In this document: in pieces, positions 3,519 through 64,000 of the stretch | How the letters are laid out: every line of letters starts with the position of its first letter | Numbering within the stretch: the first letter of the stretch is position 1 | Virus record (IMG/VR): IMGVR_UViG_3300021138_000004 | DNA: 64,000 bases | Strand: one strand, 5' to 3' | Origin: a virus | Lineage: Duplodnaviria; Heunggongvirae; Uroviricota; Caudoviricetes | Position numbers and translations under genes: made by a program | Notes under the pieces: model-generated | The model's input: the letters and a program-made list of their open reading frames with translations, nothing else | What the model was told of the DNA's origin: nothing | Database searches by the model: none

Positions 3519-6500
3519 ATGGCCGTAGGTCGTATTTCAGGTCCGCTCTTAGCGCAAAATCTTTTACGCAATGGCGTAGATCTAGCGTTCGAAACGCAAT
3601 TACTATATCTTAATGTTACCAATGGTCAAATTGGTATCCAAACTGCAACTCCACAATATACTCTAGATGTTAACGGATCTGCAAGAATCGGTAATGTTAT
3701 TGTTTCTAGTTCTAACACTGGAACATTAATCACTAATGGTACTGGTAACATTGTTATCCAGTCAGCTACTGAATCTCAAGTACAAATTAATAATGACACA
3801 TTAATCAAGGGTAATTTACACGCCACTGGTAACATTACTGCTGACGGTAGTGTACAAATCGGTAATATGACCGGCTCAGACACTTTAAGTTTGTATGCTG
3901 ATATTATTTCCGATATTACTCCGCAAACTCCTAATCAATATAATATCGGTAATCCTCAACAAACTTGGGAAGCTGGTTATTTTAACAATGTAATTGCTAA
4001 TACATTTGCAGGAGTACCGAATACTGCATTTAATATCGGAATGCCTCCGGGACAAGACATAAATGTTGGTCCGATTACCAATCCTATGGTTAATATTAAT
4101 GGTAGTGTACGGGTATGGGGCGACACTCCGTTAGGTACTGCTCCGGTTGTCAGTAATGTACTTTATGTTAGCATGGATGGTAGTGATACCAATGACGGTA
4201 GAGCTGCTGACGCAAGTCGTGCGTGCCGTACTATCAGTGGAGCAGTTAATAGTCCGTATTATCAATCAGGTACAAGTATTAAGGTTGCTCCGGGCCGTTA
4301 TTACGAAAATAATCCAATTTTATTAAAGCCATATACATCGGTTATTGGAAGTGATCTAAGAACGACTAGCATTGAACCGATCAATAAGACTCAAGATCTA
4401 TTTCACTTACAATCTGGTTGCTATCTAGCACAAATGCAATTTGTTAATGGACAAAGTGGTCTATTACCTGGTCCGGGTTATGCTCCGGGAACTAATCGAG
4501 GTGCATACTGCACAGCATTTCCGCCTAATTATGGCGGAACTCCTATCGATGTTTACCATTCTCCATACATACAGAATTGCACTAACCAAAGCGGACCGTG
4601 GTTGATAGATGGTACTATGTTTATACCAAACCAAACTGTGCAGATTCCTCAGGCAGTAGGTACTGCAACATGGACTATTAATACTACCACGATGCTGGTT
4701 ACTGTTTCCACAGGCACACTTTCTGTAGGTCAAAGTATCAATGTAGGACGTACTCCACCAGATTATCTCAATGCTAGAACCTTACTTTTGGCTAATATAC
4801 CTTTTATCCAAGAACAGGTTAACGCTTATATAACTCAAACTTTCTCAACTTACACTAACATTACTGCAAAATCATCTAGAGATGTTGGACTTATTGTTCA
4901 AAATATTGCATATGACGTTGCTTTCGGTGGTAATCAAAAGACTGTAGAAGCAGGGTCTGCATATTGGAACGGTGTTACTAGTGTAATTCCTGGTAGCATT
5001 ACTCAATGTGCTGCTGCAATCAATTATATTAATACACTAAGCCAGGCTATTATCACTAATGCTACTGCAACTAATTTACTAGGTAGTTTCCAAACTCAAC
5101 CGCAGGTTAAAAACACTAATTTAACTGGCGGCGGAACTGCTGGGTCTCTTATTACAAAATTAATTAATACTATTACCAACATTGTGGTAAATGGATTGTC
5201 TGTAGCACCGCAGGTACAAGTCGGTAATGGCCCGGATTGGGGCGCGGTATCTGCAGAAATCCTTCTACAAAATAATAGATCATTTATCCAAGACGAAGTT
5301 GTTAACTGGGTTAATGCTACATATCCAGGATTTACCTACAATCAAGAACTTTGCTGGAGAGATACTGGATTAATTATTGATGCAATTACTCAAGATATTG
5401 TACTAAATTCGAACGCTAAAACTATTGAAGCCGCTAATACCTATTGGACCGGTGCTGTTAATATTCTTGAGAATGCTAAATTCGGACAAACAAATCAAGT
5501 TCCTGAAACTATTGCAGCTATTAACCGTGCAGAAACTGTTGCATTGCAGGTTATTGCTAACTCGACTGTGACTACAACAGGATTTACTTTTGATTCTGTA
5601 AAATGTGGCAGAGATACTGGGTTAATTGTTGACGCTCTAGCACAAGATCTATTATTCCAAAGCAATAGTCAAGCAACATTTGCAGGAATTCAATATTGGA
5701 ATCATGGCAATTATGTTGGAAACATTGCTGCTGAAATTACAACAACTACTGAGGCACTTATGTATCTTAGCTCGTTGGCACAGCAGATTGTTACAAACAG
5801 CACAGGCACTCGATACCAAAATACTATTTCTCAAGTCACTAATTTGTCATCTGCTACTTCGGCAGAAGCAGCAATTGTTGCTGCCGAATTTTCAACTATT
5901 ACAAACATTTTGATCAATGGTGTTTCCGGTGTAACTAATAAAATTGTTCCAAATCGCTTAACTGCTAGCACTAGCACACACGTTCAGAATGCTTATAATC
6001 TTTTGTTGGCTAATGAATCGTATATGCAGGCAGAAATTATTGCTTGGATTGAAGCTAATAAAGTATTTCAATACAATCAAACCACTTGCAATAGAGATGT
6101 TGGATTAATTGTTGATAGTCTTTCATTAGATCTAGCATTTCCTACCAGTAATTATAGCCAATCTACTTTTGCAGGTCTGCAATACTGGAGTCAGAACGGA
6201 TATGTCGGTGCTATTGGAAGCGAAATAACTACAACCAGCAATGCAATTAGTTATTTGAGTTCGTTGGCACAAAAAATAGTTGTTAACAATACCGGCGGAG
6301 CACGATATTCTACAGGTACACAGATTACTAATCTCGCAGCATCCGGTACTCCTACAGAGGCTGGTACTATTGCAGCAGATTTTTCTGTAATCCTTAACAT
6401 TTTAAGCACAGGTACATCGGGTGTTACAAATAATATCATCCCTAATGGTATTACCGCTTCGTCAAATGTCAGTGTTCAAAATGCATTCGCACTGTTGCAG

Positions 6501-22839: not shown

Positions 22840-23117
22840 TGCTAACTGACAAATTTTACACATTCGGACAGCTTAATGCAGTTATATATGATTTTGAATG
22901 CAAGGGGGATGTGTTACCCGACCACAAACACCCCAAAGAACAAACACATATAACAATTTGTGTGAGAGGAGAGGTTACAGTAAAAACTCCAGAATGGTCA
23001 AAGACCCTCAAAGAAGGTAATATAATAGAATTTTATCCAAATCAAATGCATTCGATTATCGCATTAACAGATAATTGTAGGATCATAAATATACCAACAA
23101 CATATGCCGAAGCTTGA
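22839..23117 (+). CDS. Cupin (RmlC-like) protein
   Basis: LPDHKHPKEQTHITICVRGEV and EFYPNQMHSI match the two cupin motifs. Confidence 0.8.
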   Translation: MLTDKFYTFGQLNAVIYDFECKGDVLPDHKHPKEQTHITICVRGEVTVKTPEWSKTLKEGNIIEFYPNQMHSIIALTDNCRIINIPTTYAEA

Positions 23118-23688
23118 AAAAATTATAACAACATATACAAAGCTACAATATTTAAATTTTGTTCCAGAAATAAGACTGTTTATCCGAGAAGATAAAAATT
23201 TATATCATTTACTTCAACAAGAATATGGTAATAATGTAGCTTTTCCTTTTTGGGCACATACATGGGCTGGAGGGCAAGCTCTCGCTAGATACATTTTAGA
23301 TAATCCATCGATTGTGAAAAATAAACACATAGTCGATTACTGTTCCGGATCTAGCATAGTCGGCATTGCTGCAAATCTATCCGGTGCTAAAAAAGTAACA
23401 TGCGTCGATGTTGATGAGTTATCTACTACAGCAGCTTCTTTAAATGCTCGCGCAAATCATGTACAGCTAGAATTTTCTAGTAATATTCCGGATCATGATC
23501 TATTATTATCAGGCGATCCAGAAGTAAAACAGACAATATTTGACACAATTAAATCATACAACTCTATTATAGGGTGTCCTACTAGAGATCAATCAATGTT
23601 GCATGATTTTAATATCTTATATAACTATAATATCATTACTAATGAATTTCCAAACGGCACCGTAGTTAATATTTTGTCCAAAATATAA
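23104..23688 (+). CDS. Seven-beta-strand protein methyltransferase, METTL20/PrmA-like
   Basis: FPFWAHTWAGGQALARYILDNP...KHIVDYCSGSSIVGIAA...GAKKVTCVD. Confidence 0.75.
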   Translation: MPKLEKIITTYTKLQYLNFVPEIRLFIREDKNLYHLLQQEYGNNVAFPFWAHTWAGGQALARYILDNPSIVKNKHIVDYCSGSSIVGIAANLSGAKKVTCVDVDELSTTAASLNARANHVQLEFSSNIPDHDLLLSGDPEVKQTIFDTIKSYNSIIGCPTRDQSMLHDFNILYNYNIITNEFPNGTVVNILSKI

Positions 23689-24281: not shown

Positions 24282-25717
24282 TCCTTTTCAGAATTTAATC
24301 CAGCAATCATTTCTCGTATTTTTGAGCTACCTGTTGTGGCTCTAACTTTTCCTACATTTATACCTTCTGTGGGATCTCGTATTTCACCTGTAGTACCGTC
24401 GTATTCAACATTTGATTTAATTGTTGAAGTTTTCTTTAAACCTTCATATACACTAGGTTTTGGCGCAGAATTATAAGCTTCTTCTTCGCCTAGATCTCTA
24501 ATACGCAATGTATCGAGATCGAATTCCAAATCAACTTTTTGCCCAACACCGCTAGAACTACGTGTTTTCATAAACTGAATTTGATAACGGCCTCGTTCCT
24601 TCATTGCTCGACTTGTAAAAATACCAATAACATTGTCTGCCGTCTGAATTTTCGAAAGTCCGCCTGAAATATGACTGTGATCAAATTCAATTTCTTCAAC
24701 GGCTGCTCGATTAAGCTGAGATGCAGTAACAACAATTGCCTGCGTTTCCATTGCTAGGTTACGCAATTCTTCGGAAACATACTTGTCCTTGACAAACAAA
24801 TCGCTGGGACTAACTTTAACTGACATTGGCATCATAAGATCCAAGTAGTCAATTAGCAAAATATCCGGTTTAAACCCTTTCTTAACCTGATATTCTTTTA
24901 GATATGCTCGTAGATCATTGGCAGTTTTGCCGCTGGGCATGTACTTGATCTGTACGCTACCAGACTGTTTGCCCATCATCTTAACTTTGAGTTCAACATC
25001 ATCGAGGTTTTTAAATACTTCACGAGTTGCAACACCGGTTAACATACTATCCATACGCATAGCAACCAATGCTTCACTAAGTTCGAACGTTAAGTAAAGA
25101 ACATTAAGACCTGCCAGCGCCCAGTTACATCCTAGATTTGCAAGGAATAGTGACTTACCGCCACCTGATGCTGCACACCAAATGTTAAGTTCGCCACGAT
25201 TAAATCCGCCGTAAAGCTTCTTATCTACACTTGGCCAACCTGTGCTAATCTGACCATTGGAATTTTTAAGTCCTTCTAGACGGCCTCGAGGATCTTCAAA
25301 GTAGTCTGTACCCATATCTTTTTGTAGTGATATTTGCACAGCATCTTTAATCATCTTCTCAACTGGTCCGTATTCACCTTTTTCCAGTAAATCTGCCGAT
25401 TTTAGAATCGCGCGTTCTAAGCCCTTATGCCTGGAAAACTGTTCGAATTCGTTCATTAACCATTCATAATTTTCTGCAGGAAGTGCTGCAGGGTTTAATT
25501 CCATTCCGCAGCTTGCATTAACAATCTGCGCTTCTGGCATAACCTTGTATTGGTCGACATATGTCTTAATAAACCCTGCAGTTTCTTGGAGTTTTCTATC
25601 AAAATTTTCTGGATCAAAAATGTTAGCACAGCGAATAAATGTAATAGCATCGCTCATAAACATTTCTAGATACAACTTTTGTATTTCATAACTATAATTC
25701 GGATTTTTATCCTTCAT
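24278..25717 (-). CDS. Replicative helicase, T4 gp41/DnaB-like
   Basis: Walker A variant AASGGGKS, LIDYLDLM, TASQLNR, SGGLSKIQTAD. Confidence 0.92.
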   Translation of the reverse strand: MKDKNPNYSYEIQKLYLEMFMSDAITFIRCANIFDPENFDRKLQETAGFIKTYVDQYKVMPEAQIVNASCGMELNPAALPAENYEWLMNEFEQFSRHKGLERAILKSADLLEKGEYGPVEKMIKDAVQISLQKDMGTDYFEDPRGRLEGLKNSNGQISTGWPSVDKKLYGGFNRGELNIWCAASGGGKSLFLANLGCNWALAGLNVLYLTFELSEALVAMRMDSMLTGVATREVFKNLDDVELKVKMMGKQSGSVQIKYMPSGKTANDLRAYLKEYQVKKGFKPDILLIDYLDLMMPMSVKVSPSDLFVKDKYVSEELRNLAMETQAIVVTASQLNRAAVEEIEFDHSHISGGLSKIQTADNVIGIFTSRAMKERGRYQIQFMKTRSSSGVGQKVDLEFDLDTLRIRDLGEEEAYNSAPKPSVYEGLKKTSTIKSNVEYDGTTGEIRDPTEGINVGKVRATTGSSKIREMIAGLNSEKD

Positions 25718-26390
25718 TAATATAAGATTCCTTTTTTCTAGATTTTGTCAGAGATATTTTTCTTTTTGTTTCTTCTGACATTGGTTTTCTTGGACCACTT
25801 TTTGATTTAGGCTTTCTTAATTTTTCTTTACGTTCTTCAGACATAGGACCGTATGGTTTTTTGGGAATACCTAGTTGTGCAATGCTAATTTTACGCCTTG
25901 TTTCTTCAGATCTAGGGTTTCTTAGTTTGCTTTTAAATTCTTCAGATCTAGGTTTACGTAAATTTTGTTTAGATTTTTCACTCTTTGGCTGCCGCATTTT
26001 CTGTCTGGTTTCTTCGCTCTTAGGTTTTCGCATCTTTTGTTTAGTCTCTTCAGATAATTTTCTACCTTTTGCAGACATTGACATTTTTAATCTAGTTTCA
26101 TCTGAACATATTTTACCACTATGTCCTTGTCCACCATCTGTTTTATTCTGTAATATACCGGTACCATTATCAACTCTACCATACCATTTTATCATTCGAC
26201 GTTCAATGGCTAATGATCCAACTTCAGTTAAATTTTTTTCTAAAAATACTATTTTTGATTTATTTTTCGGAATAGTTATTTTTTCATTTTTACTTTTGAT
26301 CCATGCTCTTTTGTTTTTACCTTTTCCTATATAATATGGAATTCCGGAATCTGTTAGATATGCATATACATAGTAAATTAATGACATCAT
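25707..26390 (-). mobile_element. Free-standing GIY-YIG-like homing endonuclease with NUMOD3-type repeats
   Basis: YYVYAYL...PYYIGKG...R N-terminus; HS(E/D)ETRxK(M/I)-like and KP(K/R)SEE repeats. Confidence 0.8.
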
Positions 26391-30553: not shown

Positions 30554-31315
30554 ATGTTCCTACTAAACAAATATACTTCATGGTATTATAACATTATTAA
30601 CAGCGCAAAGTCAAGAGACATTGCAGGATATACAGAAAAACATCATATTATTCCTAAATGTTTAGGTGGTTCAAATGATCCTAGCAATTTAGTTCGGCTG
30701 TCTGCTAGGCAGCATTTTGTTTGTCATTTATTACTAACAAAGATGCTAAGTGGATCTGCAAAATATAAAATGGCTTTTGCCTTGAATCGAATGTTGACTT
30801 CTAGTAAAAAACATAATAGATATACTCCTAGTTCTAAAATGTATGAGTTATCGAGAAAATTACGCAGTGAGGCAATATCAAAAGTTCATAAAAATATTCC
30901 AGAATCTGCAGAATCGAATTTAAAAAGATCGATATCTCAAAAAGGAATTCCTAAAGGACCAAAAACAGAAGAGCACAAACAAAAATTAAGTATTGCAAAA
31001 AAAGGAAAACCTTCAAAAAGAAAAGGAATTCCTTCGGGTAAGAAAGGGTTAACTTACGAAGAAATGTATGGGATAGAAACTGCATCTAGACTTAGATTAA
31101 AGCGTTCTGAACAATCTAAAGGCCGAAAAATTTCCGAAGAAACCCGAAGTTTATGGTCTAAACAGCGAAAAGGAAAGACCTGCGGTAGTAAAAATTCTAA
31201 CGCAACTCCGGTTGTTGTAAACGGTATAGATTATGCCTGCAAAAAATATGCACAGGATGCTCTAGGAATCACGCTTTACGAATTAAACAAGTTATTGAAA
31301 ATTAGTTCTTCATAA
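30554..31315 (+). mobile_element. HNH homing endonuclease with NUMOD3-type repeats
   Basis: EKHHIIPKCLGGSNDPSNLVRLSARQHFVCHLLL; TEEHKQKLS and SEETRSLWS. Confidence 0.85.
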
Positions 31316-35772: not shown

Positions 35773-36588
35773 TTAAATGTGAACATAATACCAATTCTTC
35801 CATTTTTCTTTTGTATTCATACATCTTTTACGAATAGAATAATCGGATAATTTATAAAATTCAGCTGCTGACGTTATAGTTTGAAAAATGCCATCGGGTG
35901 TGTGTATCGTTTTAGCATTGTGATGTTTTTCGCCCCTGATTACAGATTCCCTGCGAATTGTTGCACCGTCATTACCAAAAATTTCTTCCCAAGTTTTTCC
36001 TTTTTTTGCTAAAGACATTTTTTGTCTTTGGTTTTCTGGAATATTTCTACCTTTTAATTTAGATCTTATTTTATCAATTCTTGCTTGATCATATTTCTGG
36101 CCTATTTGATGATTATTGCCAGTTTGTTTTCTAGTTTCTGCAGATTTTTTCAATCTTACGTCAGTTTCTTTTGTAAGACCTTTATTCCAACCGGGTACAG
36201 TTTTTGATTTGCCTTTTAGAGCGATTGAAAGATTCTTTTTATGGGATTCAGTAAATATTCGTTTTTTTCCGAGCTGACTCGGAGGCCTAGAATTGATAGT
36301 AATATTAGTTAAAATTCCATTAATATCGAATCCCTCTCTACCATATTCTGCGATAAGAAGCTCTTCTTTTTCATATGCATCTATTTCTGATAAATTTTGA
36401 TAAGCGTATTCTATTAAAGGCAATTTATTTCTTGAAAAAATATCTAAGATTACCGCATCTTTTCTAGGATTATCTGAGTTCTTTTTAATTTTAAAATGAG
36501 AGCAGGCTCGTTGTCCTTTGCCTTTTCCTACATAAAATGGTTCTAAGCTATCTGGGTCTAATAGTTTATATACATAATAGATATTCAT
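35773..36588 (-). mobile_element. GIY-YIG-like homing endonuclease with NUMOD-type domains
   Basis: YYVYKLLDP...PFYVGKG...R; FTESHKKNLS; PGWNKGLTK. Confidence 0.8.
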
Positions 36589-38383: not shown

Positions 38384-39112
38384 TTATTTTTCCTTTTTCT
38401 TTTTTTGTGCGGCTCTGCGAGCTTCGGACCATGGTATTCCTTTTCGAGCCGCGCTAATTTTAGCCAGTTCTTCTGGAGTTTTTTTACGGCCGGTCATTGT
38501 ATTGCGCATTATTTCTGCTTTTGCTTCTGACAAATATTTTTGAGAAGCCCTCATTCTTTCTTTAGTTTCTTCTGAATGAGTTAATCCAATGCGTCCGTTC
38601 GATTTACCTGTTTTGGCCTTACTTATCGCCTCACCTCTTTTTTTACCGATTTCCGGATCTTCTTTCCGGCCACAACGTAATGAGTTTGATAGTTTTAATG
38701 AATTCAAATGTTCTTCTGTTCGAACTAGAGATTTTGCAGAATTGCTCATTTTTTCTTTGGTTTTATTTGAATGAGTTTTTCCACGCATTCCGGTTATTCC
38801 GGCTTTATTATTTTCACTCATTATTTTTCTAGTCAGTGGCCCCGGATTACCTAATCCTTCTCCTCCGTCAGTTCGATTTAATAATATTCCTGTACCTAAA
38901 TCTTTTCGGCCATACCACTGTATCATTCTTCTTTCTATTGCACATGCTCCAACATCTGTTAAGTTCTGTTCGAGGAATACAATATATTTTCTATTTTTTG
39001 GAACTGATATTCTACCGTGAGATTCAAATACTCTATTATTTTTACCTTTACCAATGTAGTAAGGGGTGCCGTTTGATTTCCTAAGATATGCATATACATA
39101 ATAAATTATCAT
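38384..39112 (-). mobile_element. GIY-YIG-like homing endonuclease with NUMOD3 repeats
   Basis: [20 protein letters not shown]; [11 protein letters not shown] and [11 protein letters not shown]; own TATAAATA. Confidence 0.82.
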
Positions 39113-52935: not shown

Positions 52936-53271
52936 ATGCGAACTCTATGTAAAATATGTGGTACTCGACCCGTGGCAATCAACTATCATCGAGATGGGAG
53001 GACGTTTTATCGTACCAAGTGTGATCACTGCGGTCGCAAAAGAAAAACTGGAAAACCTTTGTGGTACCAGTCCGGATACAGAATGAAATGTAAATGTGAT
53101 AAATGTGGTTTCGAAAGCCGGTATCCACAACAGTTTAACGTCTTTTATTTAGACGGGGAACCATCAAATTGTCATATTACTAATTTAAAAACAGTATGCG
53201 CTAATTGTCAACGCATACTGCATATTCTTAGACTTCCGTGGCGTCAGGGAGACCTAATACCCGACTTCTAA
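52936..53271 (+). CDS. Small Zn-binding HNH-like protein
   Basis: Four CxxC pairs; DGEPSNCHITNLKTVCANC. Confidence 0.6.
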   Translation: MRTLCKICGTRPVAINYHRDGRTFYRTKCDHCGRKRKTGKPLWYQSGYRMKCKCDKCGFESRYPQQFNVFYLDGEPSNCHITNLKTVCANCQRILHILRLPWRQGDLIPDF

Positions 53272-53881
53272 TCTGACGGTGAAGATCATCAATTGATCCG
53301 TCATTGTCTAAATGAACATCATACTCAAAACCGACACTAGAATATTCGCTGGCATGAACATTTCGTTCATTGAGAATTTCTAAACACCGAGATTTTATTG
53401 CTTCGTCTTCGGTATTGTTTAACACAGCAGCAAACTCTAACCAGGTCGGATCCGTACCTCGATGTGTTCGAACAGTGATGCCGCCTGCATTTTTAATTGC
53501 TATCATTTCGTTGATAAACCGACAGTCTGTGATAACAATGTCGTCTTTGACATTAAGAAGTTTTCGTTCAACTGATGCTACCCAAATTTCGTCGTGAAAT
53601 CCTCGGCGAGCAACTTCTGTTCCCCATTGCTGTAGAACCCAACGAGGAGTGAGATCGGGAATATTTAATCGAGTTGCCCACCATTCGTCAACTTGCTCAC
53701 GCCATTCTCGGCTGTGCTTAGTTGACCCTTCGAGAAGTTCTCTATCCCATCCGAATATAACAGAGATTGCATCTTTAAGAGATGCTCCGAAGCTCATGCG
53801 CTTAAAACCGTGTACTGTGCAGAGATAGTCTGCGGCAGTGTCTTTGCCCGATCCAATCAGGCCAGAAATTCCTATAATCAT
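53228..53881 (-). CDS. Deoxynucleoside monophosphate kinase (T4 gp1-like)
   Basis: IIGISGLIGSGKDTAA P-loop, SFGASLK, VITDCRFINE; promoter TTGACC-17-TATAAT-6 nt-ATG. Confidence 0.88.
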   Translation of the reverse strand: MIIGISGLIGSGKDTAADYLCTVHGFKRMSFGASLKDAISVIFGWDRELLEGSTKHSREWREQVDEWWATRLNIPDLTPRWVLQQWGTEVARRGFHDEIWVASVERKLLNVKDDIVITDCRFINEMIAIKNAGGITVRTHRGTDPTWLEFAAVLNNTEDEAIKSRCLEILNERNVHASEYSSVGFEYDVHLDNDGSIDDLHRQIRSRVLGLPDATEV

Positions 53882-53916
53882 GTTTGCATTATACATGATT
53901 AAGAATCAAAGGTCAA

Positions 53917-58573: not shown

Positions 58574-58789
58574 GTGAACATAAGATTGCCTAGAGTAAAA
58601 CTATATCCCAGTGGTATGCGCATAGTGGAAATGAGTTATCACTACAAAATCGATCTATGGGCACAGTGTTACAATACCACAGCAAATAGCTATCTAGATC
58701 CTGATGACTCGGATTACTTTATAGTAGAGTTTCCCAGTGATAAGATTGCTACACTGTTTGCACTCACTTACAATCACAGCTTTGACTAA
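58574..58789 (+). CDS. Hypothetical protein (71 aa), TLF(A/V)L family
   Basis: C-terminal F...TLFAL shared with the next two ORFs. Confidence 0.6.
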   Translation: MNIRLPRVKLYPSGMRIVEMSYHYKIDLWAQCYNTTANSYLDPDDSDYFIVEFPSDKIATLFALTYNHSFD

Positions 58790-59025
58790 TGCACATAGAG
58801 TTCAAAGTTTCTTATGGACAAGCTGTAAAAAACAATAATTTCACAGTGCGCAATGTACGAACTCGAATAGAATCATGGTGTGCTAATCGTGAACTAGACT
58901 ATGAGCTATCAGAACATCGTATTGGATCATGGTCAATGAAGTTCAAACTGTTTTTTCCTAATGAACAAAATCTAACACTGTTTGCATTGGGTTTTGATCA
59001 ATATCCTTTTTATATAGTGAAGTAA
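58789..59025 (+). CDS. Hypothetical protein (78 aa), paralogue of the next ORF
   Basis: M(H/Y)IEF...WC..REL.YEL.EHR.G.W...FKL.F..EQ.LTLF.LGF. Confidence 0.75.
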   Translation: MHIEFKVSYGQAVKNNNFTVRNVRTRIESWCANRELDYELSEHRIGSWSMKFKLFFPNEQNLTLFALGFDQYPFYIVK

Positions 59026-59031
59026 AAGATC

Positions 59032-59268
59032 ATGTACATAGAATTTTACACTACTAGATCACCATTTTCTAGCAGTAGTCCATATCTGACCAAGCATGTA
59101 CAAGCAGCTATAGAAGAATGGTGTGATCAACGTGAGCTTTACTATGAATTACGCGAGCATCGTACGGGTACATGGGATGTGACTTTCAAACTATATTTTC
59201 ACCGTGAGCAAGATCTAACACTGTTTGTGTTGGGTTTTGGAGAATACCGTTTTCGTGTAGTGAAGTGA
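59032..59268 (+). CDS. Hypothetical protein (78 aa), paralogue of the previous ORF
   Basis: Colinear protein and nucleotide similarity to 58789-59025. Confidence 0.75.
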   Translation: MYIEFYTTRSPFSSSSPYLTKHVQAAIEEWCDQRELYYELREHRTGTWDVTFKLYFHREQDLTLFVLGFGEYRFRVVK

Positions 59269-59269
59269 G

Positions 59270-59600
59270 CTTCGCTCAGCCGGCGACGTTTGACTCTTCG
59301 CTCTAGACTCGCTCATCGCGCACTAGCCGACATCGGTAAGTGAGAAAAAAATTAGCGCGCAAAATTTTTACCACTGTGAATCTATTCTAGACCAAAGTTT
59401 TTAGAGGCCGACCTATAGTAGCCCAAAAAAATTAGCCGCGCAAAAATATAGAGATCCGGAGAACCGTACCCCTGGTGATTACATCTAACTGGGGTGGGTT
59501 TTTAGGGGTTTGAGAAATTTGAGAGAAATTTGAGAGAAGAAAAAATTGGCAAGCTAGCGCAGCAGCTAGCAGCAAACTAGCAAAAAAGCGCCTCCCCTGG
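59270..59600. other. Non-coding, strand-skewed region with short repeats at a point of convergent transcription
   Basis: AAAAAAATTAGC(C)GCGCAAAA twice; AAATTTGAGAG repeats; no credible ORF. Confidence 0.5.
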
Positions 59601-59843
59601 GGCACTGCAAACTTTTACAAAAAGCAAAAGTAGCGCAAATGTTGGGGCACTAGTGTAATAAAATTGCGTAAGCCCCAACACTGCAACGAGACCCATTGCG
59701 CAAACACGCTGTTTAACGCAACATTATTGCGTAATATAATTGCGCGCACAGCTAACATTATTACGTTTTGGGGCACTGTCCCATTGCACACGCTAGCCAA
59801 CTAGCGCAGCAGTGCTGTGCTAACTGTGTGTGCCCCTAGCGCG

Positions 59844-60032
59844 CTAGTTGTTGTAGTAGTGTTGCACAGTGTCCCAACGTGCTTTGCTGTCATTGCGCAG
59901 CAGCAGTGCAACGCATACGCAAAACATGCACAGCCCCACAACGTTAGCAGCTACAGCGTAGTAAACAGTAGCAGCACTTGTTTCTTCACAGCCCATAAGC
60001 ATAACGCTTATTACAAACAGTGCATACAACAT
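59844..60032 (-). CDS. Small membrane or lipoprotein-like protein (62 aa)
   Basis: AAGGAAAC RBS; promoter TTGCGC(60093-98)-17-TATACA; MLYALFVISVMLMGC plus a second hydrophobic segment. Confidence 0.55.
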   Translation of the reverse strand: MLYALFVISVMLMGCEETSAATVYYAVAANVVGLCMFCVCVALLLRNDSKARWDTVQHYYNN

Positions 60033-60127
60033 AGCAGTTTCCTTTAGCGCAGTGTGTTGCGTTACATTTTGTATAGCGCAGCTTTTGTAGTAGCGCAAGT
60101 GTTTTTTTGCTGACACGTAAAAAAATT

Positions 60128-60212
60128 GGGGCACTGCTGCGTGTGTGCGTGCGCGTAAATTGCGGGGCACTGCTGCGTGTGTGCGTGCGCGTAAATTGCG
60201 GGGCACTGCCCC
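60128..60212 (+). repeat. 36-bp tandem repeat (two full units plus a partial), each starting GGGGCACTGC
   Basis: Units at 60128, 60164 and 60200; no spacers. Confidence 0.9.
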
Positions 60213-60324
60213 AAAAAACACTTGCGCACGCTGCGCGTTTGTGCTACTGTTTAAGTTATTGCTGCTGTGTACGCACAGTGCTTGGCGAGCGGCTGTTGAC
60301 ATTAGCTGCAGGCCGTGCTAGTGT

Positions 60325-60357
60325 AAAAAATGGGCTGCACAGTTTATTATGCAGCCC
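60325..60357 (-). terminator. Terminator of the 60372-60557 gene
   Basis: GGGCTGCA...TGCAGCCC followed by ATTTTTT on the minus strand. Confidence 0.75.
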
Positions 60358-60371
60358 TAGGTTATGCACAG

Positions 60372-60557
60372 CTACGATGCAACTTCAAAACTTGCGTAAA
60401 CCTCGTAATCCAAATCTTGTTGGTTGCGGCGTGCGGTCCTCATTTGATTGAGTGCGCCCATGACCGCAAACTCTATTTGGTGTTTGAACTCTTCAAGGGT
60501 GCCAACAGCGCCGGCTATCTGTGCTTCATCTACAAGCACTTCAATCATCAGCTTCAT
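60372..60557 (-). CDS. Small early-type hypothetical protein (61 aa)
   Basis: TTGACA(60605-10)-17-TATATA, AGGAG RBS, own terminator. Confidence 0.75.
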   Translation of the reverse strand: MKLMIEVLVDEAQIAGAVGTLEEFKHQIEFAVMGALNQMRTARRNQQDLDYEVYASFEVAS

Positions 60558-60755
60558 GGCTTACTCCTGTTTGTTGAAACTTATATACTGCGCTTTTGTG
60601 CGTGTGTCAACTGGTTATTTTTGTGTTCCCTGAAAATCTGTTTGAGTCGTAGGCTCTGCTAGAAAACGCAGAATTACAGCAGACTAGTCTCTGTAACTCC
60701 CTAGATCTGTCTGTGACTCAGCCTCTGAGGTTCAGTGAAGGTTCAGGCGCAGGCT

Positions 60756-60940
60756 GGGGCATTGTTCCTGACCTAGTGTGAGGTTTCGCGATCTAACCTC
60801 GCAGAGTTAGACCTAAGAGTCGTAGGGATCTAATGTTGTGCTTGGGGCATTGTCCCTATAGCAGTGTGAGGTTTCGCGATCTAACCTCGCAGAGTTAGAC
60901 CTAAGAGTCAGGGAGTCTAATGTTGTGCTTGGGGACAAAT
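60756..60940 (+). repeat. ~88-bp tandem repeat (two copies) led by GGGGCATTGT
   Basis: AGTGTGAGGTTTCGCGATCTAACCTCGCAGAGTTAGACCTAAGAGTC identical at 60775 and 60863. Confidence 0.9.
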
Positions 60941-61182
60941 GTTCTGTGTTTAGAAACTCTGTTAGCGCCTTGACTGTATAGCGGGGTCTGTGTAGAATGT
61001 GCTTGACAGCCCCACGAAAATCTCATAGAACTATAACCACAGTGGGCCTTGCCGTGCGACCTCAAAAATAAAAAGCAAACACGCACAGCTTTAAAAGCAG
61101 CTTGTGCCTTGGGGCATCACAGACAAACTAACAATATAAGAATGCTTTTAGATCTCTGCATTCGTAGGGGCACAGACAGAGA

Positions 61183-61347
61183 CCAAAAAGCCCGACATCA
61201 CTGCCGGGCTTTTCTCAGTTCCATGGATCCTTTAGCGCGTAAATGTACGATGAACAAAGGAGCGCGCTAGCGATACGATCAGGACCGTTTGATGTTCCGC
61301 AGAAACTGGCAACACTGCGTCGGAAAACCCTCCTTTGCTTACTCATC
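61183..61347 (-). ncRNA. Candidate ~165-nt structured small RNA
   Basis: Promoter TTGACT-16-TAAAAC; long-range stem GATGA..GCAAAGGAG / CTCCTTTGTTCATC; GTGA-loop terminator plus U-tract. Confidence 0.5.
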
Positions 61348-61714
61348 TGTTTTAGCACTAGTAGAGCAGCAGTCAATGAAAAAATGCTGTGCAGCTAAAA
61401 TTATTTCTGCACGGTTTTGCGCTCTCTAAGACCTTGGGGCATTGCCCCATGACACGCGCTGCTGTATAACTTTACTACTGTGTGCTTTTATTTTTTTAGT
61501 CAGAAGGATGGTGTCTTGCTGATCACTGTTTTATGAGGTCTAGTGGGACTTGTCAAGCGTTTAGCTCAAAGTGCCCCAAGATTTTTATAGGTTGACGCAG
61601 GTCTTATTTCTTTGTATAAAGCGTCTAGTTGGACCTATAATTGTGACTCGTTGATCCTCTGCGAGTTTGCAGTTTAGCTTGGGGCACTGCCCCGCAAAAC
61701 GTGCATAAAAGCAA

Positions 61715-61734
61715 GCGCACTATTGCTAGTGCGC
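61715..61734 (-). terminator. GCAA-loop terminator of the 61749 gene
   Basis: GCGCACTA-GCAA-TAGTGCGC-TTGCTTTT. Confidence 0.75.
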
Positions 61735-61748
61735 CCGCCCCGTGCTAG

Positions 61749-62054
61749 TTACGCTTCCATGCTTGCAAAGCAGTCCTCTTGCATCCCTTGCTCCGTAAAG
61801 TCTACGTCATAGCCCAGCGCCCTGCTAATAGCAGCCGCAAAGCCTTTGTCTGTGTAAATTGTCCAGTCAGCGTTGTGCGTTACGTTTACGCTCTTGTAGC
61901 CATCTTCTTCGCGCACGCAAATGCCGCTAACCTGCACTTGCTTACCAGCAGTGTCTCCCCAAATGCTAGTGCCGTTGCACGCTGCAACAAAGTCGCAGTC
62001 GTAAACAGTTTCCGTAACGTCATCTTCCTGCGTTACGCTTGCAACAGTAATCAT
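61749..62054 (-). CDS. Early-type hypothetical protein (101 aa) with no TC on the coding strand
   Basis: AAGGAC RBS; promoter TTGCAG(62122-27)-17-TAAACA; start MITVAS. Confidence 0.75.
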   Translation of the reverse strand: MITVASVTQEDDVTETVYDCDFVAACNGTSIWGDTAGKQVQVSGICVREEDGYKSVNVTHNADWTIYTDKGFAAAISRALGYDVDFTEQGMQEDCFASMEA

Positions 62055-62290
62055 AGTAGCTGTCCTTTTTTGTGTAGCAGCTTCGTTGCTGCATGTGTTG
62101 TTTAGCGCAGCAGCGCGCAAGCTGCAAGCGAAAAATGAGCGATAGTTGGGGCACTGGCAAACAGAGGTTGCGCGTAAATGGCGGGGCACTGCCCCAAAAA
62201 ACACTTGCGCCCTCGCTGCCCGTGTGCTAGTGTATAAGTTATTGCTGAGCTAAGACTAGCACACTGGCGAAAGGTGGGCAGTGACTCTCG

Positions 62291-62500
62291 TCACCACTCC
62301 CCTACCATCCCGCGCTGGTAAACGACCTCTGCCTGAAGCGCAGCCACGGACTTGACCTCAGCGATCGCAGCTTTAAAGGTCTTGCAGTCCTTGATCAGGT
62401 CTGCGAGCTCAGAGTCTTCAAAGGTTTCGCAGATGATGTCCAGGTTGTCCTTGTCGTAGTTCTGCCAAATATAATCTTTGACCTGTTGAAGCAAAGTCAT
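62291..62500 (-). CDS. Early cassette gene (69 aa)
   Basis: TTGACA(62545-50)-17-TACAAA, AAGGAG RBS. Confidence 0.75.
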   Translation of the reverse strand: MTLLQQVKDYIWQNYDKDNLDIICETFEDSELADLIKDCKTFKAAIAEVKSVAALQAEVVYQRGMVGEW

Positions 62501-62621
62501 GTTGTGTCTCCTTGTGCAGTGTTTGTAGCGAACTAGAGAGCGTGTGTCAATGACTATTTTTGTTCCCAGTATAAGTTTCTTAGGTCGTAGATCTAGTCTG
62601 TGGGACACACTAGGATAAAAA

Positions 62622-62647
62622 CAAGCGAGCCATTGCTGACCCGCTTG
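62622..62647 (-). terminator. Shared cassette terminator, copy 1
   Basis: CAAGCGGGTCA-GCAA-TGGCTCGCTTG-TTTTT. Confidence 0.85.
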
Positions 62648-62654
62648 TTCTGTG

Positions 62655-62861
62655 TTAGTATTCGAGCTTTACGATATTGGCAATAGCTCGCGACTCCTGC
62701 ATCCCGGCACCTGCATCCTTGGCGCCGTCAAACGCGAGGACCCGCACATTGTCATAGAACTCGGCGCGCCCCTCCTCGGTGTCCTCGAGCGTGTCAGCAG
62801 TAATGCAATCGCCAATGTGACGATCTACGTTTTCGCGCGCTGACTGCATATACTTGTTCAT
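62655..62861 (-). CDS. Early cassette gene (68 aa)
   Basis: TTGACA(62912-17)-17-TATGTG, AAGGAG RBS. Confidence 0.75.
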   Translation of the reverse strand: MNKYMQSARENVDRHIGDCITADTLEDTEEGRAEFYDNVRVLAFDGAKDAGAGMQESRAIANIVKLEY

Positions 62862-62991
62862 TGCTGTTGCTCCTTGCTTGCTGCACTACACATAGTAGAT
62901 TGGCTGCAGAGTGTCAAGCGGAAAAGATCTTGCCCCACAAAGAGTTCTACGTGTGTGTATGTGTAGCAGCGGGGTCCTGCAAGACACAAAG

Positions 62992-63017
62992 CAAGCGAGC
63001 CATTGCTGACTCGCTTG
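62992..63017 (-). terminator. Shared cassette terminator, copy 2
   Basis: CAAGCGAGTCA-GCAA-TGGCTCGCTTG-CTTT. Confidence 0.85.
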
Positions 63018-63029
63018 CAGTGTGCTTAG

Positions 63030-63449
63030 TTAGGCAGCGCCAAAGAACGCATCGATCTCTGCGTCCGTAGCGTAGCGCACACCGTCGCCCAGTTCCTTCG
63101 GGTTCAAGTAGTAGCTGCTACCGTCGCCGAAGGCCGTGCTGCCATTGGCAGTATAGACTTCGGCATCGCCGTCGTGGTCGATGTTGCGGATCAGCAGAGT
63201 CTCGCCTGCTCGCACAACCATCGTGCCCTTCTTGTAAGGACCGACTTCATTGCTCTTGGTACAGTCGATGCCCGTGATTGCAGTGACCAGCGCGCGAACA
63301 CTGGAGTCCTGGCAACCCCAACGACCGGCATTGACTGCGGCGAGGATCTGCTGCTGTTCAGCCGTGAGCACCACGTCGTCGGTGTCAGCTTCGTTGTTGC
63401 GGCGCTTGGCCGTCTTGCGCTTGATCTTTGCGATATCGAAAAATGCCAT
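63030..63449 (-). CDS. Early cassette gene (139 aa)
   Basis: TTGACA(63499-504)-17-TATAAC, AAAGGAG RBS. Confidence 0.8.
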   Translation of the reverse strand: MAFFDIAKIKRKTAKRRNNEADTDDVVLTAEQQQILAAVNAGRWGCQDSSVRALVTAITGIDCTKSNEVGPYKKGTMVVRAGETLLIRNIDHDGDAEVYTANGSTAFGDGSSYYLNPKELGDGVRYATDAEIDAFFGAA

Positions 63450-63577
63450 TTGCTTGCTCCTTTGCCTGCATCCTTGTTATAGTGTGCAGTTGTAACCTTG
63501 TCAACGACTATTTTGTCACCCCACAGATTTGTCTGCAGATAACATTACAGTCCCGTGGGGCATTTAAAGACGCAAAA

Positions 63578-63603
63578 CAAGCGAGCCATTGCTGACTCGC
63601 TTG
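63578..63603 (-). terminator. Shared cassette terminator, copy 3
   Basis: CAAGCGAGTCA-GCAA-TGGCTCGCTTG-TTTT. Confidence 0.85.
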
Positions 63604-63611
63604 CTCTGTGC

Positions 63612-63887
63612 TTAGTTAGGGCGGCGTCCTTTACGCGCCTTTGGCTTAGGGCGCATAAATGCGCGATATGCTTGTGCGGCGCGATACAGTGACGACTCAC
63701 TGATGTTAATGCCGGCAGCGTTAGCAGTAGCTACGATGTGCGACATTTTATACATCGTTCCGTGATGAGCACATTTATACCGGATTACCTCACGTCCCAG
63801 CAAGATATCTTTTGAGAACGGAGTATAGTCTTCTCCGCGTTCGTATGCAGCGTGGTTGTTGTGAATTGCTTCGAGTAGCGCGAACAT
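63612..63887 (-). CDS. Early cassette gene (91 aa) with a basic C-terminus
   Basis: TTGACA(63937-42)-17-TACAAC, AAAGGAG RBS. Confidence 0.8.
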   Translation of the reverse strand: MFALLEAIHNNHAAYERGEDYTPFSKDILLGREVIRYKCAHHGTMYKMSHIVATANAAGINISESSLYRAAQAYRAFMRPKPKARKGRRPN

Positions 63888-64000
63888 TGTCTAACTCCTT
63901 TGTTTGCATCCTTGTTGTAGCGGACTGCCTAGACTCTGTCAACGACTATTTTAGTGTCTTTGCTAAATTGTTTGATGATCTCTGCATTGTCCCATTGGGG

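Follow-up and report, generated by a model that had tools for sequence, protein, structure and literature searches.

A strand-specific ban on the dinucleotide YC in early-type gene cassettes of an uncultured T4-like jumbo phage

Introduction

Viral RNA is known to suppress certain dinucleotides, CpG in the face of ZAP and UpA/UU in the face of RNase L. Among T4-type phages, Arbiol et al. are said to have described, in 2010, early gene cassettes of the PeSL type. Avoidance of restriction targets has been reported for phage DNA that enters the cell first, as in the 0.3 region of T7 and in an early injected region facing Type I restriction-modification (PMC12455610). In Bacillota, a purine bias of the coding strand gives a composition that avoids Rho (Dierksheide et al., 2026, PMC13323073). 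The clefts of the Rho primary site bind 5′-YC (PMC12360218), E. coli Rho recognizes as many as six CC or UC in series (PMC13323073), and Rho silences foreign DNA, according to a passage of the same paper that cites Cardinale 2008. In the CmdTAC phage-defence system, CmdT ADP-ribosylates the A of GA dinucleotides in single-stranded mRNA (PMC11618068), and Cas13b orthologues act as collateral RNases that prefer UC (CcaCas13b) or GA (PsmCas13b; reviewed in PMC10196884). In phage defence, attack on single-stranded RNA at specific dinucleotides therefore has precedents in CmdT and Cas13b.

Here we describe two small cassettes of a jumbo phage whose sense strand is devoid of YC (TC and CC; the reverse complement, GA and GG, is called GR). 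Full-text literature searches found no description of such a dinucleotide ban.

Results

The window, that is, the whole 64-kb stretch of DNA that was analyzed, comes from an uncultured, freshwater, T4-like jumbo phage, the terminase of which is 55% identical to that of Pseudomonas phage PA5oct. Its Pfam matches comprise homologues of the T4-like terminase, sheath, gp15, UvsX, gp41, gp32 and UvsW, and the layout is that of T4-type early cassettes, with small genes that each have their own predicted promoter and hairpin terminator. Megablast and blastn found no nucleotide similarity to the region among cultured phages; the nearest record to the window was a 51-kb fragment (G001) without gene B, and the matching sequencing runs were 24 freshwater runs, all matching as contigs, with no RNA run among those listed. 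Scans of the region for tRNAs and Rfam families gave no match. Pfam and PHROG assigned no family to the island genes of the window, to their neighbors or to 10 island proteins of relatives, and the neighboring cassettes had no homologues among 160 related loci.

The first-pass annotation had marked two islands almost free of GA and TC. We reproduced its counts for island A (Table 1), where base composition predicted ∼49 of each dinucleotide, and the ratio of observed to expected fell below 0.35 only for windows inside 59601-60400. The GA-free run that it had placed on the plus strand over gene B was found at 61664-62130 (467 nt) and is the longest in the window; the second longest lies at 59691-60112 (422 nt), and the longest elsewhere is 186 nt. 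The actual rule is sharper than a scarcity of GA and TC: the sense strand of the gene A and gene B cassettes, both self-contained, has no YC. The early expression and the transcript ends of both cassettes are predicted from sequence. In gene B, GA and GG are normally frequent on the sense strand, and Ser is always encoded by AGC (six codons) and Phe by TTT (four codons), as had been claimed. The scarcity of GG and CC outside the motif GGGGCAYTG also held (23 GG against 48 expected), with zero GG on the plus strand of 61690-62129. Copies of GGGGCAYWR, which occur only on the plus strand and only between 59.6 and 62.2 kb, hold almost all of the GG/CC of the islands, and the palindromes GCGC, CTAG and TGCA are abundant there.

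Island A is a composite of the gene A unit, an upstream zone of repeats and promoters, and the terminator of the next gene. In the repeat and promoter zone, YC and GR are almost absent from both strands, and within the tandem repeat GG/CC is confined to the G4/C4 motif. AAAAAAACAC precedes the predicted promoter of gene A. The first copy of the 79-nt module looks like a plus-strand promoter firing against the adjoining minus-strand gene. Island B begins 3 nt upstream of the -35 box and ends shortly after the terminator.

Separately, we observed that 60113-60283, which is mostly 36-nt repeat and probably untranscribed, lacks GA and TC on both strands.

Table 1. Positions of the islands, genes and predicted signals in the window
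Feature	Position	Strand	Details
Island A (limits of the first-pass annotation)	59581-60360		780 nt; 5 GA, 7 TC
GGGGCAYWR motif	59599-62191	+	13 copies, core TTGGGGCAYTG, often GGGGCAYTGYCCC
YC-free run	59773-60112	-	340 nt; promoter, 5′ UTR, gene A and 3′ region; ends in GGGACAGTGCCCC motif
Gene A	59844-60032	-	62 aa, hydrophobic, no Pro; sense YC = 0; RBS AAGGAA
Gene A promoter (predicted from sequence)	60070-60098	-	-35 TTGCGC (60098-60093), 17-nt spacer, -10 TATACA (60075-60070)
Tandem repeat	60128-60212	+	two exact 36-nt units (GGGGCACTGCTGCGTGTGTGCGTGCGCGTAAATTGC) and a third copy of the motif
79-nt module, copy 1	60186-60264	+	GGGGCACTGCCCC, AAAAAACAC, TTGCGC (60222-60227), 17-nt spacer, TACTGT (60245-60250), TAAGTTATTGCTG
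Promoter-like site, island edge	60296-60324	+	TTGACA, 17-nt spacer holding a CC, TAGTGT
Intrinsic terminator of gene 60372-60557	60332-60357	-	hairpin and T run
Island B	61684-62130	-	YC-free run, 447 nt; corresponds to plus-strand GA- and GG-free stretch
Gene B terminator (intrinsic, read from sequence)	61705-61740	-	AAGCGCACTAGCAATAGTGCGCTT and GCTTTTAT; stem without YC and GR
Gene B	61749-62054	-	101 aa, acidic, no Pro; sense YC = 0, GA = 23, GG = 22
Gene B promoter (predicted)	62099-62127	-	-35 TTGCAG (62127-62122), 17-nt spacer, -10 TAAACA (62104-62099)
79-nt module, copy 2	62169-62247	+	86% identical to copy 1; TTGCGC (62205-62210), YC-containing 17-nt spacer, TAGTGT (62228-62233)

We compared both genes with 100,000 synonymous recodings that used the phage's own codon usage. 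Gene B never reached zero YC (mean 12.4, P<1e-5), and for gene A the probability was 2e-4. As the annotation had also stated, the cassettes close by are unprotected: genes at 62291-63887 have TTGACA promoters and YC at 0.73-0.86 of expectation. The depletion is not due to chance or codon bias and is not genome-wide, being confined to early-type cassettes. That no selection is involved, and that the pattern reflects chance, low-complexity repeats, codon bias or a mutational footprint of UV or deaminases, is barely conceivable and is refuted by these controls. Island A is indeed partly repetitive (36-nt tandem units, 79-nt module), and TC and CC are hotspots for UV and APOBEC-type damage; against this stand the recoding result, the codon-junction counts given below, and homologues at 45-74% amino-acid identity that keep the ban on a conserved protein sequence. 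A mutational footprint is further opposed by the purged strand itself, where T is not enriched (A 32%, T 25%) and TT is not depleted. Avoidance of UV damage at the hotspots that the annotation had named does not fit the same TT count. We also rejected selection for unstructured mRNA: relative to shuffled sequences, the folding of island genes shows no weakening (z -0.83, against -0.52 in controls, P=0.16).

No homologue of gene A was found beyond this phage, which makes it an orphan, and conservation of the ban is therefore judged on the gene B family. This family has hundreds of metagenomic homologues and a C-terminal motif, FTEQGMQEDxFASME. The AlphaFold2 model of gene B is confident (pLDDT 94); comparison with the PDB and the ESM Atlas gave no informative fold match, and tblastn no match in 50,697 phage records. 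Sequence comparison indicates that selection keeps the ban in most of the ∼120 distinct relatives examined. Zero sense YC was found in 45 of the 66 distinct gene B homologues, across which the protein is conserved, with 18 invariant columns. YC counts in the family are bimodal, with a mode of 0 and a second group at 7-15, against ∼12-14 for neutral recoding; zero is expected to be the modal count if the first YC already costs fitness.

The strand of the ban is equally well established. Sense GR in the gene B family matches the expectation of random recoding, with a median (observed-minimum)/(expected-minimum) of 1.04, and the symmetric GA/TC unit proposed in the annotation therefore does not hold: the banned step is YC on the sense strand. 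Symmetric avoidance of the duplex GR/YC step was ruled out by the same minimum-recoding test. Across the codon junctions of 56 banned gene B homologues we observed 2 YC versus 352 expected, and in the same homologues NYC codons are virtually absent and NRC codons preferred (GAC 485 versus GAT 97, the opposite of the background). It is thus C after a pyrimidine that is avoided, and not C as such. The junction statistics also place the selection at the level of nucleic acid and not of codons, and they rule out a tRNA- or codon-level explanation. Some 150 YC-banned ORFs lack Pro, and ∼10 ORFs also lack Asp, Glu, Gly and Trp; the Pro-less island proteins argue that the protein sequence itself was changed to comply with the ban.

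The banned stretch starts at about the -10 box and extends as far as the terminator; promoter spacers tolerate YC. In island promoters, -35 boxes and spacers together hold 10 YC per 795 nt; the discriminator has 1 per 329 nt, and the figure falls to 1 per 1345 nt for 5′ UTRs. YC usually reappears once the hairpin of the terminator has reached its 3′ arm, or else in the spacer of the promoter that follows; these places are base-paired or untranscribed. In a strain variant, L005 (99.4% identical), YC occurs in the promoter spacer of gene B and just upstream of the -35 box. The GA-less -35 boxes that the annotation had pointed out, and the TTGACA at the island edge, are where it had placed them (Table 1). 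Boxes without GA are a trait of this phage alone: its banned relatives have TTGACA, and YC is accepted both in their spacers and in their -35 boxes. Since the ban starts near the -10 box and relatives use TTGACA, the proposal that promoters are kept readable on modified DNA does not generalize.

In a refined form of the annotation's idea, a mark on the phage's own DNA could act within the transcribed part: a bulky modification on the G of GR or the C of YC in virion DNA would be kept off the template strand of the genes that are read first. The mapped limits agree equally well with the reading of RNA and with a template strand kept free of GR between ∼-12 and the terminator, the island promoters of this phage also lack GA/TC on both strands, and an accessory modification pathway, gained and lost, would fit the on/off pattern. 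7-Deazaguanine is inserted at GA-type motifs in phages such as CAjan, which we count as a precedent. We nevertheless consider a DNA mark improbable. The modification genes searched for were not found in banned contigs: PF01702 (TGT/DpdA, the family that inserts 7-deazaguanine) is absent from the two banned contigs covered by that search (G004 and G006) and from unbanned G002, G003 and G005, and the thymidylate-synthase-family hydroxymethylase PF00303 of an hmC/hmU-type route, as in T4, M6, ViI and phiW-14, from five banned and three unbanned contigs. The five banned contigs, which are 140-257 kb long and an estimated 38-72% complete, also gave no C5 methyltransferase. A Pfam scan of 29 window ORFs found no TGT/DpdA, thymidylate-synthase-type hydroxymethylase or C5 methyltransferase; a dNMP-kinase-like ORF at 53228-53896 is not specific for modified nucleotides. 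The only methyltransferases, in two of the five banned contigs, are non-orthologous DPPY adenine enzymes. Furthermore, relatives carry GA in -35 boxes and YC/GR in spacers, and adjoining early cassettes with strong promoters have GR on the template strand. To our knowledge, RNA polymerase is not blocked by the 7-deaza and 5-substituted bases known so far. A modification, if there is one, may be made by some other pathway. An N6/N4 methyltransferase was rejected as a correlate of the ban: the enzymes of G004 and G013 are only 23% identical, and 18 further contigs gave none.

The ban occurs in freshwater, estuarine and marine jumbo phages and has repeatedly been lost. The gene B tree requires at least eight independent losses, and a complete 400-kb relative keeps gene B and has no island anywhere; in a 256-kb relative, islands are found only in the first 4.4 kb. 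The repeated losses and the island-free relative argue that the agent behind the ban is dispensable. Neither psbA nor psbD, looked for as a sign that the unbanned low-GC marine lineages are cyanophages with Rho-less hosts, was found in five unbanned or five banned contigs. Two families follow the mirror rule, with sense GR absent and YC normal (L069 3178-3450 and G004 4140-4409; L031 2222-2476), and one protein family is YC-free in L020 and L036 and GR-free in L069 and G004.

This last family is one reason to consider a rule at the level of DNA in which an activity on duplex GR/YC, for example nicking or deamination followed by repair, is harmful only with hits on both strands, and each cassette would therefore retain the step on a single strand. 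In addition, the allowed orientation is not minimized, and the two banned sets are exact reverse complements of each other. Phage T7, with its EcoP15I sites in a single orientation, is a precedent for such a rule. Another is DddA, a TC-specific deaminase of double-stranded DNA (PMC13346905). We give this rule only a slim chance: true GR-only genes are rare (two families versus ∼150 YC-banned ORFs), normal genes between the islands leave the region as a whole unprotected, and the ban tracks the limits of transcription units, with YC in the spacers, and not a DNA segment.

Discussion

We tentatively favor, ahead of the other readings, escape from a factor that not all lineages have and that recognizes YC in single strands, most likely an enzyme that cuts or modifies RNA and for which one hit suffices. 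Purifying selection at the nucleic-acid level would keep a few autonomous early cassettes free of any 5′-YC-3′ on their sense strand, and the transcript, or the identical non-template strand in the transcription bubble, would thus offer no target. The reader would be an accessory activity, present in some phage and host lineages and missing from others, and would be either a host defence effector or a shut-off weapon of a phage; most likely it would cut or chemically modify single-stranded RNA at a dinucleotide, in the manner of CmdT or of the dinucleotide-preferring Cas13b RNases. Expression of the island genes, and of gene B in particular, would have to continue while this activity is on, which would make them first responders. 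What the data establish is the ban, with its strand, limits, conservation and repeated loss; from its pattern we infer that the reader acts on RNA, that a single hit is enough, and what kind of activity it is. Several points count against this explanation. We know of no enzyme with YC specificity on RNA; the limits are identical for the RNA, the non-template strand and the template strand with its lack of GR, and all three are equally compatible with the ban; the unprotected state of adjacent cassettes with similar promoters means that the island genes would have to be special; the probably untranscribed, largely repetitive stretch 60113-60283 is likewise free of GA/TC on both strands; and the mirror families call for a second reader of reverse-complementary specificity, an uncomfortable coincidence.

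Second in rank, and rather unlikely in our view, is evasion of Rho. Transcripts without UC and CC, the only dinucleotides gripped by its primary binding site, would leave Rho unable to load even if they were poorly translated early on. The specificity matches the ban exactly, C after a purine is kept and even preferred as the structures would predict, and Rho silences foreign DNA. The islands also have the composition to be expected, being purine-rich with G above C (25.3% G, 17.6% C and 58% purines in 48 kb of pooled island sense strands), with no YC over the 447 nt of the gene B unit and the 340 nt of the gene A unit; the ban spans whole transcripts including UTRs, and YC is tolerated in paired RNA or untranscribed DNA. 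However, Rho needs several YC, so that a few should be tolerable; if clusters of YC alone were harmful, mutation pressure should keep counts just below the harmful number, yet the mode is exactly zero. At least eight losses among close relatives, and a complete relative without the ban, would be hard to square with a housekeeping factor that is nearly universal. With their good Shine-Dalgarno sites and high-expression codon bias, island genes should already be protected by coupling, and neighboring early cassettes are left unprotected. The mirror genes, which have no GR and are YC-rich and G-poor, would be ideal Rho substrates, and residual YC show no 3′ bias, contrary to the polarity expected. 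On the Rho reading, the losses would require an anti-Rho function to have been gained or a move to a Rho-less host.

The interpretation offered in the annotation survives in its core, selection to carry no target for a dinucleotide reader; the symmetric unit and the specifics of promoters and modification found no support. Returning to a reader of YC on single strands, we see as a real, if still doubtful, prospect that an undescribed activity, widespread in aquatic bacteria or jumbo phages, attacks single strands at YC, and a second one at G-purine, and that a set of first responders led by gene B is hard-coded to be immune, even at the price of deleting Pro (or Asp, Glu, Gly and Trp). In that case, gene B would be a candidate for a counter-measure against this activity. 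An all-or-none ban that overrides protein sequence is among the strongest signals of nucleic-acid-level selection in phage genes. It would single out the few genes that have to function under attack, and it defines the specificity of the attacker, YC on a single strand, ahead of the attacker itself. Should Rho prove to be the agent, a virus would here show cis-encoded, total immunity to it for the first time; otherwise, the ban is a lead to a new enzyme of defence or shut-off with dinucleotide specificity, and also to inhibitors of that enzyme.

How does the locus compare with the systems described so far? As with the avoidance of restriction targets in first-entering DNA, a few early genes are free of targets and counter-defence would be expressed first; there, however, the targets are duplex sites of 4-8 bp, whereas here a strand-specific dinucleotide is banned within the bounds of transcription units. 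Avoidance of restriction palindromes in general concerns sites of at least 4 bp on both strands and is usually genome-wide, in contrast to a one-strand ban in islands. Similar to PeSL cassettes, the genes are small, have their own sigma-70-like promoter and stem-loop terminator, and lie in a hyperplastic region of a T4-like genome, but for PeSL cassettes we know of no reported dinucleotide exclusion. Suppression against ZAP and RNase L resembles the islands in that a two-letter word is avoided and a host factor directed at RNA would thereby be evaded; that suppression is genome-wide, statistical and a feature of eukaryotic viruses, and the ban is all-or-none, in gene-sized islands of a DNA phage. 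Cas13b offers immune RNases that cut single-stranded RNA at preferred dinucleotides, UC and GA included, but its preferences are not strict, CC is not reported among them, and UU and UA, which CcaCas13b cuts, are not avoided here. CmdTAC likewise reads a dinucleotide on single-stranded RNA, and a single CmdT hit blocks translation, which would explain GA-free messages; the mRNA of gene B, however, has 23 GA and it is YC that is banned, so a CmdT-like reader fits only the rare GR-free genes and the stretches free of both. Another comparison is with the Rho-avoiding composition of coding strands, which has the same UC/CC on nascent RNA, the same purine richness with G above C, and the same reach over whole transcripts; in contrast to that composition, the ban described here is absolute, covers ∼1% of a genome, has rewritten proteins to the point of removing Pro, and has been lost repeatedly.

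Selection against TC and CC on the sense strand

The first-pass annotation described 59581-60360 (island A) as almost free of GA and TC, and this scarcity was reproduced, with 5 GA and 7 TC against ∼49 of each predicted from composition. The longest GA-free run in the window is 61664-62130 (467 nt) and the second is 59691-60112 (422 nt), while the third reaches only 186 nt. The depletion is thus real; however, GA/TC is not the avoided unit. GG is also missing on the opposite strand, and the actual rule is an absence of TC and CC (together, YC) from the sense strand. The plus strand of 61690-62129 contains no GG; being without GA and GG, it leaves the sense (minus) strand of the gene B region (61749-62054, 101 aa; island B, 61684-62130) without TC and CC, and this strand carries 23 GA, 22 GG, and zero YC. 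All six Ser codons of gene B are AGC and all four Phe codons are TTT, as had been reported. Gene A (59844-60032, minus strand, 62 aa) is likewise YC-free, within a YC-free run spanning 59773-60112, and proline is absent from both proteins. These two islands are the only outliers in the window.

The depletion withstood a control of synonymous recoding drawn from the phage's own codon usage: zero YC was never reached in 100,000 recodings of gene B (mean 12.4), and the corresponding probability for gene A was P=2e-4. The depletion therefore reflects selection rather than chance or codon bias.

The gene B family has hundreds of metagenomic members, and 45 of 66 distinct homologues (45-74% identity) have zero sense YC. 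Across the codon junctions of 56 such "banned" homologues, we counted 2 YC versus 352 expected. NYC codons are nearly unused in these genes and NRC codons are favored, the reverse of the background (GAC 485 versus GAT 97). Since junction YC is missing while NRC codons are preferred, tRNA supply and avoidance of C itself are excluded, and the ban hits only a C that follows a pyrimidine. The C-ending NRC codons favored by island genes, opposite to the phage background, are GAC, AGC, TGC, TAC, CAC, and GGC, a preference consistent with high-expression codon bias.

We also used dynamic programming to find the lowest and the average counts that synonymous recoding can give, and set the observed counts against them. 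YC in the gene B family sits at the recoding minimum, whereas sense GR (GA and GG, the reverse complement of YC) equals the random mean (median ratio 1.04), so that an avoidance acting symmetrically on the GR/YC duplex step is refuted for this family. A further test led us to reject selection for unstructured mRNA.

YC-free runs in relatives reach 1676 nt, spanning several small Pro-free genes. Some relatives carry genes without YC, GA, and GG, and their proteins consequently lack Asp, Glu, Gly, Trp, and Pro; for some of these genes, no Shine-Dalgarno sequence is possible in the 5'UTR. The AlphaFold2 model of gene B is confident (pLDDT 94) and acidic, with five strands and one helix; no solved fold matched the model, and the protein matched no Pfam or PHROG family. 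Gene B might act as a counter-measure.

The ban follows the transcription unit

Among 47 non-redundant island promoters, YC occurs 10 times per 795 nt across -35 boxes and spacers (in no fewer than 8 independent loci, at distances down to 5 nt from the -10 box), once per 329 nt in the discriminator, and once per 1345 nt in 5'UTRs. A strain variant 99.4% identical to the window has YC in the gene B promoter spacer. Downstream, YC usually first reappears in the terminator hairpin, on its descending arm, or in the next promoter's spacer. The transcription unit thus sets the limits of the ban, with untranscribed or immediately base-paired places exempt. Because the tolerated YC is untranscribed or paired, the limits fit a reader of single strands, and they are equally compatible with RNA, the bubble's non-template strand, or a GR-free template strand.

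The -35 boxes TTGCGC and TTGCAG are present in the islands as annotated. Lack of GA in this box does not hold as a general trait, since banned relatives use TTGACA, with GA on the sense strand, and it is peculiar to the phage of the window. The relatives therefore speak against the promoter part of the proposal in the first-pass annotation. In most minus-strand -10 boxes of the early cassettes, the last base is A or C instead of the canonical T.

Repeated loss among relatives

YC counts in the gene B family are bimodal, at either 0 or 7-15, the latter near neutral expectation. In a phylogeny of 119 gene B proteins, the ban characterizes a large clade and has been lost independently at least 8 times. 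The nearest relatives of the window include both states (L006 and L007 banned; L008, L010, and L012 relaxed), and the complete 400-kb genome G002 retains a gene B containing 8 YC and shows zero islands genome-wide. Other sister lineages also differ in the ban, such as that of L030 versus L124, L057, and L034, and L081 and L116 versus G002. Because of this repeated loss, the island-free G002, and the mixed states among nearest relatives, the imposing agent, whatever its nature, is dispensable and lineage-variable.

Every island of the 256-kb relative G004 lies within its first 4.4 kb. Gene B lies 1-20 kb from a contig end in many large IMG/VR and metagenome contigs, for example at 1.2 kb (268-kb contig), 1.0 kb (141-kb contig), 1.6 kb (257-kb contig), and 17 kb (the complete 400-kb genome), which hints at islands near a physical genome end or beside an assembly-breaking region. 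Four independent assemblies of the phage (L001, L003, L004, and L005) break at 61240-61491.

Two gene families of relatives, versus ∼150 YC-banned ORFs, follow the mirror image of the rule: their sense strand lacks GR but has YC at normal levels. One of the two, that of L069 3178-3450 and G004 4140-4409, has YC-free homologues in other phages (L020 93-383 and L036 614-904). The mirror genes are preceded by a strong GGAGGG ribosome site. These rare genes may point to a further reader of complementary specificity, or else to a "one orientation" rule acting on DNA, and pose a genuine difficulty for the view of a single YC reader.

Genomic setting

The window (G+C 40%) encodes T4-type functions by Pfam: large terminase, tail sheath, gp15-like sheath stabiliser, UvsX/RecA, gp41-like helicase, UvsW-like helicase, and gp32. 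The terminase shares 55% identity with its counterpart in the Pseudomonas jumbo phage PA5oct. No nucleotide match was found among 50,697 phage records; freshwater metagenomes contain the same DNA. CpG is depleted genome-wide in G002 (obs/exp 0.54) and not in the window (0.91). Four homing-endonuclease-like ORFs (NUMOD3, HNH, GIY-YIG) are scattered through the replication module.

From 58.2 kb onward, small genes each have, as read from the sequence, their own sigma-70-like promoter and hairpin terminator. Tandem paralogous 78-aa genes (58789-59025 and 59032-59268, plus strand; 72% identity over 171 nt) are convergent with the minus-strand early array, and a 1-kb stretch without an ORF separates the islands.

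What is left of island A lies upstream and comprises 36-nt tandem repeats together with a 79-nt module, which resembles a plus-strand promoter and has a second copy at 62169-62247. Each 36-nt unit holds an 18-nt alternating purine-pyrimidine tract (GCGTGTGTGCGTGCGCGT). YC and GR in this zone lie nearly all inside the 13 same-strand copies of GGGGCAYTG. The broader motif GGGGCAYWR, expected about twice across the whole window, precedes each island promoter by 25-60 nt and is possibly a protein-binding site; its core is often extended to the near-palindrome GGGGCAYTGYCCC. The plus-strand promoter-like sites point into genes of the minus strand at their 3' ends, and those at 60222-60250 and 60296-60324 have the start TAAGTTATTGCTG in common. 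They could give antisense RNAs.

Features of the window and of related metagenomic loci (L) or larger relative contigs (G)
Feature	Location	Strand	Remarks
PrmA-like methyltransferase, small	window 23104-23688		
Homing-endonuclease-like ORFs	window 25707-26390, 30554-31315, 35773-36588, 38384-39112		
dNMP-kinase-like ORF	window 53228-53896		
Motif GGGGCAYWR, core TTGGGGCAYTG	window 59599-62191	+	13 copies, all on one strand, within 2.6 kb
-10 boxes of early cassettes	window 60070-63950	-	TACAAA, TATAAC, TACAAC, TATACA, TAAACA
Two exact 36-nt tandem units	window 60128-60199		
Promoter-like sites	window 60222-60250, 60296-60324, 62205-62233	+	No ORF downstream
Two 67-nt direct repeats	window 60755 and 60843		Inside ORF-free stretch 60600-61650
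TTGACT-N17-TAGAAT site	window 60970		Inside ORF-free stretch 60600-61650
Mirror genes	L069 3178-3450, L079 2317-2634, G004 4140-4409, L031 2222-2476		Sense strand without GA/GG, normal TC/CC
Genes free of YC and GR	L007 1-2260; L144 11946-12694; L103 7813-10796		

Candidate agents

A dpdA-type modification gene, raised in the first-pass annotation, did not turn up: TGT/DpdA was found in neither banned contig searched (G004 and G006). Five banned contigs (140-257 kb, 38-72% complete) contained no thymidylate-synthase-type hydroxymethylase or C5 methyltransferase. Two of the five encode adenine methyltransferases; these share only 23% identity, and their occurrence does not follow the ban. No known-pathway base-modification enzyme was found among 29 window ORFs scanned against Pfam; a methyltransferase-like and a kinase-like ORF are listed in the table.

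Evasion of Rho, by transcripts without the dinucleotides that it binds, is an obvious candidate, since its primary binding site grips UC and CC (PMC12360218; PMC13323073), exactly the banned pair, and the island messages contain more G than C and are rich in purines. We nevertheless rank it second and regard it as rather unlikely. Rho recognizes YC in series, which should make a few of them harmless, and mutation pressure should keep counts near the tolerated number, but the mode is exactly zero. Moreover, close relatives have repeatedly dropped the ban, adjacent early cassettes go without protection, and the island genes possess good ribosome-binding sites. For these reasons we place first, as a tentative choice at somewhat less than even chances, a YC-directed accessory enzyme for which one site would be enough. 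Such an enzyme would act at YC by cleaving or modifying either single-stranded RNA or the sense DNA strand where it is exposed.

Full-text literature searches returned no description of such dinucleotide-banned islands. Dinucleotide-specific attack itself has a precedent in CmdT, which ADP-ribosylates GA in mRNA (PMC11618068), and the Cas13b collateral RNases prefer UC or GA (PMC10196884).
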